Sequence record: PQ505080.1
DNA length: 64,000 bases
Origin: Escherichia phage HMD-6
Direction: 5' to 3' (one strand)
The translations under genes and the position numbers were made by a program. The notes below the pieces were generated by a model. The model saw only the letters and a list, made by a program, of their open reading frames with translations. It did not search any database and was not told the origin of the DNA. Each line of letters opens with the position of its first letter. Within the stretch, counting starts at the first letter, position 1. This document shows positions 40,790 to 42,333 of the stretch, one piece after another.

Positions 40790-41290
40790 TTAGCTTTCAA
40801 TACCGAATAATTTTTCCAGGCGATGCAGATCTTCAAAATTGAAAGGTTCATCAACAATATGAATATCTTCAGCCTTTTCAGATTGTTTTGTATACTTTCT
40901 TACATTAACACGATCTTCTACAGGGATGTCATACGGAAGATCTTGAACAAGCATTGCCTCACCGGGTGCTTTATCTACATCTAAAATATCTACACCGTTA
41001 TACATTTGCGGGTATCTAAAGTCTGCACGCATGACACCAGCAAATACATCTGCCTTTCGATAATGGGTTGGCTTATTTTTGCATCGAACGTTTTTTCCAC
41101 GAAGAACATCAATATTTTTTAAATCAAACCCTACAGCAAAGAGTGCAGCTCGGAGACCGTTTCGTGTGCGAACGTTAAATCCGGGAACAGTAGATAGGAA
41201 ATCTAAAGTAACTGAAATAAATGTCTTTTTAGGAATCATAACATTACTCATATCTGTCTCCATTTCTGGCTCACCAACAAAGTGAGCCAT
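40790..41290 (-). CDS. hypothetical protein (166 aa) within nucleotide-metabolism cluster
   Basis: ORF track; no motif recognised. Confidence 0.55.
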   Translation of the reverse strand: MAHFVGEPEMETDMSNVMIPKKTFISVTLDFLSTVPGFNVRTRNGLRAALFAVGFDLKNIDVLRGKNVRCKNKPTHYRKADVFAGVMRADFRYPQMYNGVDILDVDKAPGEAMLVQDLPYDIPVEDRVNVRKYTKQSEKAEDIHIVDEPFNFEDLHRLEKLFGIES

Positions 41291-41349
41291 TATTATAGAT
41301 TATCTGATGCTATTAGTCAACACAAAAGTTACCTATCGCTGTGATAGGA

Positions 41350-42333
41350 TTAACCTTTCATGAAGTGGTTATTAAGCAGCTGTCTGTGCTGAACCCACCC
41401 ACAAAAGTTGGCAGACCAGAATTTACCATCACGGTCTTGATGGGTTACACCTTCCTGCCAAACACAGCTGTCCTGTGTGATTTCACATGAAGACAGGTAG
41501 TAGTTTAAACGTTCCATTGCGTTATCGTGATCCATAGGTGTTGCCTGGTGCTCGTAGGGGCTTGCATGAATACGATCCCCACCAATCAATTTTTTAGCCA
41601 CACTGTCTGCCTTTTCAAACGTGCTGTCAATATTTCGATAAGATACTTGTGCACAGCAACTAGCACTAATAGACAGAGCTTCTTTAGTATCGAGAATGCA
41701 GAGCTTTCCTTCTGTGTCACGTACAGCGTAGTTAAACTCTCCGTCCAAATAAACATGCTCTACATATGGGGTGTGCCATTGACCCGGTTTAAGGATTTCA
41801 GGAGTGCTATTCATAATAGCATCCTGCATGCAATTAGCCAACATCTGAATCGTAGGATCCGCATCGTGCCAGCAACGTAGGTGGAAAAAATTATTCCACT
41901 CGGTGCTTGTTACAACTGTTTTCATGCGCTGAAACGGCTCTACTAAGCGGTTACATACTTGCTTATGGTAACCAGCAAGGGCGAACTTCTCTGCATGCCA
42001 AGCGGCGTTTTTTGCAGCTTCTTTCCAAAACTCTTCAGGGGTCATCTCCATGTCAGTGTATTCTACACGGATCTTTTGATCGTGTTCCCCTCCATCTTCC
42101 ATTCCTCGCTTATTTACACCGAAGCGAACTGGCATTGCCGGATTCTCAACAATCTGCTGCAGCATCTTGCTGACAGGCACTGCACGAGAAGACATGGCGT
42201 TTCGGCTGAACATTCGATGTGTCATAAGCTCTGAGTGAATAATTCGAGGATATTCTAGCTCAAAAGTAGTGATACGCTTACCTTTCTCGGAAATGCTGTC
42301 GGCAATAATCTTTGCAGTGCACAGTTTTAGCAT
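41350..42333 (-). CDS. thyX: ThyX-like (flavin-dependent thymidylate synthase family) protein
   Basis: THRMFSRNAMSSRAV resembles the ThyX RHR-x7-S signature but with T in place of the first R; 327 aa is longer than typical. Confidence 0.5.
   Translation of the reverse strand: MLKLCTAKIIADSISEKGKRITTFELEYPRIIHSELMTHRMFSRNAMSSRAVPVSKMLQQIVENPAMPVRFGVNKRGMEDGGEHDQKIRVEYTDMEMTPEEFWKEAAKNAAWHAEKFALAGYHKQVCNRLVEPFQRMKTVVTSTEWNNFFHLRCWHDADPTIQMLANCMQDAIMNSTPEILKPGQWHTPYVEHVYLDGEFNYAVRDTEGKLCILDTKEALSISASCCAQVSYRNIDSTFEKADSVAKKLIGGDRIHASPYEHQATPMDHDNAMERLNYYLSSCEITQDSCVWQEGVTHQDRDGKFWSANFCGWVQHRQLLNNHFMKG

Follow-up and report, generated by a model that had tools for sequence, protein, structure and literature searches.

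A rearranged ThyX-like protein with threonine in its signature motif, and its small orphan neighbour, in Escherichia phage HMD-6

The flavin-dependent thymidylate synthase ThyX attracts interest as a target for antimicrobials and serves as a model of flavin-mediated methylene transfer, and the mechanistic schemes proposed for it lean on a few “universally conserved” residues. Its signature is given as RHR-X7-S (Myllykallio 2002, as quoted in PMC2826268), and the first arginine of this motif, R78 of the Thermotoga maritima enzyme, which is one of those residues, has been described as pointing at N1/C2=O of the reduced isoalloxazine and stabilising the anionic form of reduced flavin adenine dinucleotide (FADH-) (PMC11940539). 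The canonical references used for comparison were T. maritima TM0449 (PDB 1O26), whose sequence was checked residue by residue against PDB 1KQ4/1O26, and A674R of PBCV-1 (PDB 4FZB/2CFA), together with the profiles PF02511 and TIGR02170. The segments of canonical ThyX follow one another as N-terminal strands, a helical module (S30...H53-x-x-P-F-E-H), a strand, the RHR...S-x-R loop and the core helices (with R147 and R174). That the fold can change its specificity is known from PolB of polyoxin biosynthesis, a ThyX-like uridine monophosphate (UMP) C5-methylase with extra elements and an altered substrate preference, which keeps the canonical segment order and serves in the biosynthesis of an antibiotic. 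Here we describe a ThyX-like protein and the small open reading frame (ORF) next to it, both encoded in a stretch of 64,000 nucleotides of Escherichia phage HMD-6 (sequence record PQ505080.1), hereafter the window, where an earlier sequence-only reading had singled them out.

The 3.3 kb around the ThyX-like gene share 99.6% identity with Escherichia phage vB_EcoM_SYGMH1 and 95-99% with FV3 and other Vequintavirus genomes (~95% for BASEL isolates, e.g. JohannBauhin), and the window is that of a Vequintavirus, an rV5/FV3-like E. coli myophage. The direct orthologues of the ThyX-like protein, with which it belongs, are rV5 gp106 and FV3 ORF100, the latter with 100% identity, while the family members of phAPEC8, ICP1 (gp193), Pakpunavirus and G7C (gp30) are 39-55% identical to it. 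The gene as such is already known, being annotated as a thymidylate synthase in hundreds of genomes; the members from rV5, FV3, G7C and ICP1 carry this label, show no sequence difference of kind, and rV5 gp106 has been treated simply as the thymidylate synthase of that phage (PMC3606486).

Segment order of the ThyX-like protein

Both ORFs are present on the minus strand where the earlier reading had placed them. The parts of the ThyX-like gene on which the comparison turns are:

41350-42333, minus strand: ThyX-like gene, 327 aa (ORF list, Pfam Thy1, PHROG 85)
42184-42222, minus strand: signature loop, residues 38-50 (T-H-R-MFSRNAM-S-S-R), corresponding to R78-H79-R80...S88-G89-R90 of Thermotoga
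41545-41688, minus strand: relocated helical module, residues 216-263 (..ISASCCAQVSYR...HASPYEHQ), corresponding to residues 21-59 of Thermotoga ThyX (S30, H53, P-F-E-H)

The protein, which has 327 aa compared with 220 aa in T. maritima ThyX, reads ...SELM-T38-H39-R40-MFSRNAM-S48-S49-R50-A..., that is, THR-X7-S. Of the R-H-R-X7-S signature, the histidine, the second arginine and the serine are thus kept, and the first arginine is replaced by threonine. The Pfam Thy1 domain is found above its gathering score (35.1 bits vs 24.8, E=1.5e-8), over residues 23-178 and profile positions 60-190 only, and PHROG 85 (“thymidylate synthase”) matches with E=1.4e-111. The structure predicted with AlphaFold2 (AF2; predicted local distance difference test score, pLDDT, of 81.7) has the ThyX fold: the top 50 Foldseek matches in the PDB are all ThyX, with a probability of 1.0. 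Only ~160 residues align colinearly in these matches, which is what a rearranged fold would give. The sequence-only reading, which had taken the protein for an unusually long ThyX relative with a deviant signature motif and had proposed profile and structure searches as a check, is borne out by them, since Pfam, PHROG 85 and Foldseek all assign it to ThyX.

Neither the native protein nor a native profile of 26 family sequences had a match among the PDB sequences at E<=1, which we attribute to the order of the segments and not to missing homology. Indeed, when the family alignment was compared with Thermotoga ThyX (hhalign), three local pieces were obtained which are not colinear: residues 23-50, containing the signature loop, correspond to Thermotoga 63-90, residues 131-178 to 152-199, and residues 222-262 to 21-59. 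The last piece (residues 222-263, ISASCCAQVSYR...GGDRIHASPYEHQ) resembles the canonical N-terminal part LSAVRAARVSF...KHGHETPFEH (Thermotoga 21-59), and the helical module that stands before the RHR loop in the canonical enzymes is found after the core in the phage protein. When residues 216-263 were moved in silico to a position before residue 19, the match to Pfam Thy1 improved from 35.1 to 46.0 bits, and its coverage of the profile grew from positions 60-190 to 14-190. A profile of 12 family members re-ordered in this manner found 13 matches in the PDB, all of them ThyX (best E=0.0053), and one of the alignments crosses the artificial junction (...HASPFEHQ-KRITTFELEYP...MTHRLFSRNAMSSR against ...HETPFEHI--VFTFHVKAP...FRHRIASYNELSGR), whereas a control profile with residues 264-311 moved to the same place gave zero PDB matches at E<=10. 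The arrangement is shared by the family, with a motif of the H-x-S-P-x-E-H type lying after the core in 222 of 242 members and before it in none.

The AF2 model reflects the same order: a beta-hairpin (residues 6-29) runs straight into the signature loop and from there into the core helices, beyond which the chain forms a beta-region (179-214), then three helices (216-250) and finally a structured tail, the relocated module being flanked by family-specific strands. As judged from its sequence, the protein is a ThyX whose segments stand in a non-textbook order, namely beta-hairpin, T-H-R...S-S-R loop, core, helical module and conserved tail. The ~100 additional aa consist of an insertion (64-98), the beta-region 179-214 and the conserved tail of 64 residues (264-327), so that the rearrangement of segments plus insertions accounts for the length of the protein as well as for its incomplete match to Pfam, with no added catalytic domain. 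Among the constructs made, only the placing of residues 216-263 beside residue 19 improved the Pfam match; a simple circular permutation, in which the C-terminal half precedes the N-terminal half, did not. The order may have arisen either by a classical circular permutation with added termini or by the relocation of one module. No description of this different segment order, or of the systematic loss of R78 in the phage subfamily, was found in the literature, of which most subscription journals were outside coverage. The rearrangement also explains why the ThyX matches that annotation pipelines return for these phage genes are partial or fall below threshold.

The signature threonine and the active site

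The family is large, with 6,431 homologues in a 90%-clustered database and 5,497 clusters at E<=1e-3 in a profile search of a 50%-clustered library, the best 150 of which are mostly ~280-375 aa long and matched over nearly the whole profile. By tblastn it was found in 1,034 of 50,697 phage records, the carriers being Vequintavirinae, phAPEC8-like phages, Vibrio phage ICP1, Pseudomonas Pakpunavirus and related 85-94-kb Pseudomonas myophages, the N4-like phage G7C (where gp30 is annotated as similar to N4 gp30), and Caulobacter and Flavobacterium phages; members that have been named are called thymidylate synthase. In 258 family sequences the position equivalent to R78 is occupied by threonine in 248, by arginine in three and by lysine in two, the other five being intein junctions, and among 37 diverse representatives the conservation of T38 reaches at least 90%. 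Since threonine is what a huge phage subfamily normally carries at this position, its presence tells nothing specific about HMD-6, and the occurrence of RHR within the same rearranged family suggests that threonine and arginine are functionally interchangeable at this site. The proposal that the exchange signals an altered chemistry, for example that of a modified-pyrimidine synthase, is accordingly not supported, and the case is a caution that a deviating motif in one genome is not evidence of exotic DNA chemistry.

Eight residues (H39, S48, R50, R129, N148, R153, S231 and H256) are invariant in the 37 representatives, which share 39-52% identity. Mapped through hhalign against Thermotoga ThyX (Tm), they correspond to:

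H39: Tm H79
S48: Tm S88
R50: Tm R90
R129: Tm R147 (by manual alignment)
N148: Tm N169
R153: Tm R174
S231: Tm S30
H256: Tm H53

The equivalents of the residues that contact deoxyuridine monophosphate (dUMP), FAD and folate are thus all retained, and among the substrate and cofactor residues only the equivalent of R78 is changed (T38). In comparison with canonical ThyX, the protein shares the predicted fold, the signature loop in its H-R-X7-S-x-R part, the invariant equivalents of H53, S30, H79, S88, R90, R147, N169 and R174, and genes for ribonucleotide reductase (RNR) and a deoxynucleoside monophosphate (dNMP) kinase as genomic neighbours. It differs in the position of the helical module after the core, in the threonine in place of the first arginine of RHR, in being ~100 aa longer, in falling under the TIGR02170 cut-off, and in that its native order is not detected by a sequence search of the PDB. 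A subfamily of thousands with a changed segment order, in which R78 is missing and the other key residues are kept, amounts to a natural experiment on which residues are indispensable.

Seven further invariants (E35, K124, H187, P189, R233, K241 and R317) are family-specific and have no counterpart in canonical ThyX. One of the basic residues among them, with R233, R317, K124 and K241 as candidates, may have taken over the role of R78. The C-terminal G-W-x-Q-[HY]-R-Q (residues 312-317, window 41383-41400), in which R317 is invariant and Q315 at least 90% conserved, resembles the canonical Q-W-F-R-H-R, and might be what is left of a signature loop that was once duplicated, or else provide a compensatory arginine. 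The idea that the W-x-Q-[HY]-R-Q stretch is a second, degenerate copy of W-F-R-H-R gained no significant support from hhalign and was discarded.

Many family members of 520-680 aa contain inteins, with a Cys as first residue and HN or GN as last (homologues P0181, P0188, P0189, P0190, P0210, P0215, P0230, P0250, P0251, P0254, P0268, P0284 and P0298). At least five insertion points were recognised (after H33, after R40/F42, within S48-S49, after H156 and after H256), and these lie in or beside conserved ThyX motifs. Inteins typically occupy conserved sites of proteins which the host cannot lose, and their insertion at these motifs therefore argues that the active-site segments are indispensable.

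Substrate and product of the enzyme

The ThyX-like protein is probably a bona fide enzyme for the conversion of dUMP to deoxythymidine monophosphate (dTMP), with an ordinary product. It would methylate dUMP with the use of FADH2 and methylene-tetrahydrofolate, and the dTMP would feed phage DNA synthesis alongside the products of the neighbouring genes for a dNMP kinase, an NT5C-like nucleotidase and the aerobic and anaerobic RNRs. An ordinary dTMP synthase is the most likely assignment because the key residues are invariant, because these phages are sensitive to restriction-modification (RM) systems and because no hypermodification genes are annotated. Indeed, the Vequintavirinae and their relatives were found in the BASEL study to be “exceptionally susceptible” to RM systems, unlike phages with modified DNA (PMC8594841), and the annotations of FV3 between 50 and 137 kb, the part of that genome to which the statements on FV3 below also refer, include no gene for ThyA, dihydrofolate reductase (DHFR) or hypermodification. 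Neither hypermodification nor replacement of thymine is thus supported. In G7C the family member is located near a dCTP deaminase gene. For the locus as a whole, a rearranged ThyX which makes dTMP, accompanied by an orphan small protein belonging to the RNR unit (see below), is likely to be the best explanation.

Several observations weigh against this explanation. The thyX equivalog model of NCBIfam (TIGR02170) gives 36.6 bits, below its cut-off of 87.9, which would be out of reach for a rearranged member because the model assumes the canonical segment order. The Foldseek matches are weak in absolute terms (E ~1e-3, TM 0.30/0.45). The correspondence of R129 with R147 comes from a manual alignment with a 3-residue gap, and the position equivalent to R80 is mostly R in the wider family, with K, G, N, C, Q, A and S as the alternatives. 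The loss of R78 could change the flavin chemistry. RM sensitivity is compatible with a subtle or partial modification of thymine, and an NT5C-like nucleotidase together with a dNMP kinase is what thymine-replacing phages use for depleting dTMP. The role proposed below for the small protein is based on its architecture and synteny. Finally, no biochemical study of any member of the subfamily was found in the literature, most subscription journals again being outside coverage.

Some of these points also favour an enzyme of altered chemistry, in which THR would go with the supply of a modified pyrimidine nucleotide (5-hydroxymethyl-dUMP or another C5-substituted dUMP), the dNMP kinase phosphorylating this product and the NT5C-like nucleotidase removing dTMP. 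The arginine said to stabilise the anionic FADH- is absent, the score is under the thyX equivalog threshold, and the gene is operonic with dNMP kinase-like and 5'-deoxynucleotidase-like genes, a combination used by known thymine-replacing phages. The exocyclic methylene intermediate of ThyX could also in principle be trapped (discussion of PMC8989533). This possibility, which the sequence-only reading had raised, is nevertheless very unlikely, as the THR-type enzyme is present in >1,000 phage genomes from many unrelated groups, some family members have RHR, and the substrate-contacting residues are all invariant, the equivalents of R174 and R90 included. A ThyA-type hydroxymethylase is the starting point of known thymidine hypermodification (PMC8989533), 5-hydroxymethyluracil (hmU) pathways using enzymes of that type, and the FV3 annotations include no hmU kinase, no glycosyl or amino-acid transferase and no other gene for hypermodification.

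It is likewise highly improbable that the protein methylates a different substrate, such as deoxycytidine monophosphate (dCMP) or UMP, or that it is a dead scaffold of a complex for the synthesis of deoxynucleoside triphosphates (dNTPs). Such a role would be in line with its strong divergence from the ThyX enzymes that have been assayed, with the missing PDB sequence matches of the native sequence and profile, and with the seven extra invariants (E35 to R317) absent from canonical ThyX. The equivalents of the residues binding the uracil ring, the dUMP phosphate and folate are however invariant, inteins target the conserved motifs, which speaks against a dead enzyme, and the gene is the only thymidylate-synthase candidate annotated in FV3. 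As for dCMP, bulk 5-methyl-dC should provoke McrBC restriction in E. coli K-12, which is the routine isolation host of these phages according to the hosts listed in the records. Synthesis of dTMP from dUMP therefore remains the preferred assignment, and the result for phage biology is modest: the gene is most likely the phage's own dTMP synthase, and its small neighbour an orphan tied to the RNR operon across the clade.

The small gene and the ribonucleotide reductase unit

The minus strand is the coding strand for every gene in the region. In the order of their transcription, the neighbours of the ThyX-like gene are:

43134-43736, minus strand: dNMP kinase-like protein (PHROG 139 “deoxynucleoside monophosphate kinase”, E=2.8e-43)
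42535-43128, minus strand: 5'-deoxynucleotidase-like protein of the NT5C family (haloacid dehalogenase, HAD; Pfam NT5C E=4.4e-6, 27.1 bits vs cut-off 24.8)
42333-42533, minus strand: conserved 66-aa ORF (PHROG 4903), whose stop shares one base with the ThyX-like ATG
40790-41290, minus strand: small ORF as listed, 166 aa (ORF list)
40790-41251, minus strand: small ORF trimmed to M14, orphan protein of 153 aa (PHROG 5557, function unknown)
40549-40779, minus strand: 76-aa gene (PHROG 5488), counterpart of the PF26220 DUF8047 genes of relatives
38237-40552, minus strand: nrdA, large subunit of class Ia RNR (ORF; annotations of the orthologues in FV3 and VB-EcoM-WM)
37110-38198, minus strand: nrdB, RNR small subunit (ORF; FV3 and VB-EcoM-WM annotations)
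36828-37106, minus strand: glutaredoxin, grx (ORF; FV3 and VB-EcoM-WM annotations)
33946-36831, minus strand: split nrdD, from 36831 downwards, beyond the glutaredoxin gene

The small ORF was described by the sequence-only reading as lying between the ThyX-like gene and nrdA within one operon. Its position is as described, but the 76-aa gene also intervenes before nrdA, and the shared cluster appears to be divided by elements in the 59-nt gap between the ThyX-like stop and the annotated ATG of the small ORF, and at that ATG:

41332-41348, minus strand: weak terminator-like hairpin directly after the ThyX-like stop (6-bp stem with 3 G-C pairs, then TAACTTTTGT; a pattern match only)
41292-41320, minus strand: sigma-70-like promoter TTGACT-17-TATAAT (11/12 match)
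41267-41289, minus strand: stable 9-bp hairpin (-15.2 kcal/mol, z = -3.6), which takes in the first codons of the 166-aa ORF
L002 5905-5975, L003 5920-5985 and L004 5918-5980: promoter-hairpin site in relatives, with position kept and sequence not

As the terminator-like hairpin and the promoter separate them, the ThyX-like gene and the small ORF probably do not form one uninterrupted operon. The promoters of rV5 have been reported to resemble the E. coli consensus (PMC3606486). The -10 box in the window is separated by a single base from the annotated ATG at 41290, and a GGAG (41261-41258) is found 6 nt upstream of the ATG of M14 (41251-41249). Most homologues of the small ORF are 153-160 aa long and start at the position of M14, and the PHROG 5557 match begins at residue 14 of the 166-aa ORF. 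Because the -10 box and the hairpin sit at the annotated ATG, GGAG precedes M14, and the homologues begin there, the small ORF most likely starts at M14 and encodes 153 aa (40790-41251). The gene would then head a transcription unit expressed from its own promoter and continuing with the 76-aa gene, nrdA, nrdB and grx.

A TTGACA box, a hairpin (unrelated in sequence), a GGAG and an ATG recur at the same place in three relatives with 33-45% identity; the hairpin occupies the equivalent position in L003 and L004, and a weaker one is present in L002. This suggests a conserved 5'-terminal stem-loop on the mRNA of the RNR operon. Transcription is predicted to start near 41285 in the window. The hairpin there begins only 3 nt after the -10 box, so that some of its bases may precede the start.

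The 153-aa protein matches PHROG 5557 over its full length (E=7.2e-75, residues 14-166 against positions 1-157 of the 158 of the profile). A profile search returned 103 clusters, all of 150-180 aa and none of them named, and no fusion of the family to another domain was found among them. The predicted structure has a confidently folded alpha/beta core (residues 24-110), followed by a low-confidence linker which bears the invariant basic motif N129-x-R-K-Y-T-K135, and by an acidic C-terminal helix; disorder is predicted for about one third of its length, the most conserved motif included. The invariant polar residues are S26, T28, D30, R69, C70, R78, Y97 and D104, and, in the motif, N129, R131, K132, Y133, T134 and K135. 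No match was obtained for the small ORF in Pfam, NCBIfam or the folds of the PDB, Pfam searches with 32 homologues gave just scattered single hits, and a fold search of BFVD matched only uncharacterised phage proteins, with which the fold is shared (e.g. A0A5B9N8G3 of Aeromonas phage 4L372XY, Foldseek E=6e-12). The small neighbour is thus uncharacterised, just as the sequence-only reading had it, and no profile or structure search annotated it as a known housekeeping enzyme.

The suggestion that it could be a DHFR or a nucleotide-modifying enzyme found no similarity to lean on in the profile and fold searches, neither the domain models nor the fold matching DHFR in particular. ThyX chemistry yields tetrahydrofolate, hence there is no call for a DHFR. 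In PQ014731.1 the 166-aa ORF (99703-100203; L001 6291-6791) is labelled “thymidylate synthase”, which no search supports; the name has probably spilled over from the gene next to it. MK883717.1 carries the annotation “thymidylate synthase (x2)”.

The cassette of ThyX-like gene, 153-aa gene, DUF8047 gene and RNR genes is kept at 33-45% identity in Salmonella phage SSBI34, Erwinia phage Hena1 and metagenomic relatives. In Hena1 (L003 6719-10314), the ThyX-like, 167-aa and DUF8047 genes are kept, and the RNR is of class Ib (NrdI flavodoxin-NrdE (RNR_N)-NrdF), not Ia, which indicates that the upstream cassette has stayed constant while the RNR genes behind it were replaced. In ICP1, PaGz-1 and G7C, the ORFs on either side of the ThyX-like gene showed no similarity to the 153-aa protein (hhalign), and since it is absent beside the enzyme in these phages, it is not an obligatory partner of the T-H-R enzyme. 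Our best guess, held weakly, is that the protein is a non-enzymatic accessory or a regulatory or binding protein of the module for RNR and dNTP supply. It would be tied to this module rather than to the ThyX-like enzyme, and would engage a partner through its conserved basic linear motif. That it is instead a small enzyme of nucleotide metabolism, supplying dUMP or recycling folate or flavin for the ThyX-like enzyme, is rather unlikely. Its invariant polar residues are many for a protein of this size, its place inside the nucleotide-metabolism cluster is fixed, and FV3 has no annotated supplier of dUMP except a MazG-like pyrophosphohydrolase, all of which would suit an enzyme. The protein however lacks any Pfam, NCBIfam or PDB-fold match as well as a motif for binding a cofactor or metal, the disordered third contains the most conserved motif, the protein is not encoded beside ThyX of this type in ICP1, Pakpunavirus and N4-like phages, and the promoter-like site groups its gene with those of the RNR and not with the ThyX-like gene.

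A more far-reaching reading, in which the rearranged THR subfamily is a mechanistically distinct branch of ThyX and the 153-aa and DUF8047 proteins of Vequintavirinae-like phages are unrecognised accessory subunits or regulators of RNR or the machinery of dNTP synthesis, is unlikely. If it were true, R78 would be replaced by a residue of the family-specific C-terminal tail or of the relocated module, and the enzymes could differ in redox tuning, reductant, inhibitor sensitivity or even product.

The remaining neighbours agree with the layout of related genomes. Synteny of the NT5C-like gene is kept in relatives, where a gene of 60-80 aa stands at the place of the 66-aa ORF. The 76-aa gene owes its DUF8047 label to precomputed Pfam hits of its syntenic counterparts in relatives, and itself had no match in the local Pfam copy. 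Its stop overlaps the TTG start of nrdA (ATTGA), and this overlap, like that of the 66-aa ORF with the ThyX-like gene, suggests translational coupling with the downstream neighbour. The nrdD gene is interrupted: its first piece (ORF 35662-36831) contains the ATP-cone and positions 1-263 of the 562 of the NRDD profile, the far piece is a 330-aa ORF (33946-34938), and between them lies a 183-aa ORF (35059-35610), the interrupting gene being annotated as an HNH homing endonuclease in FV3 and VB-EcoM-WM. About 20 GenBank records of the MG0656xx series, named “Campylobacter phage” with C. jejuni as host, are ~95% identical to E. coli Vequintavirus genomes across this region, and look like mislabelled or contaminating coliphages.

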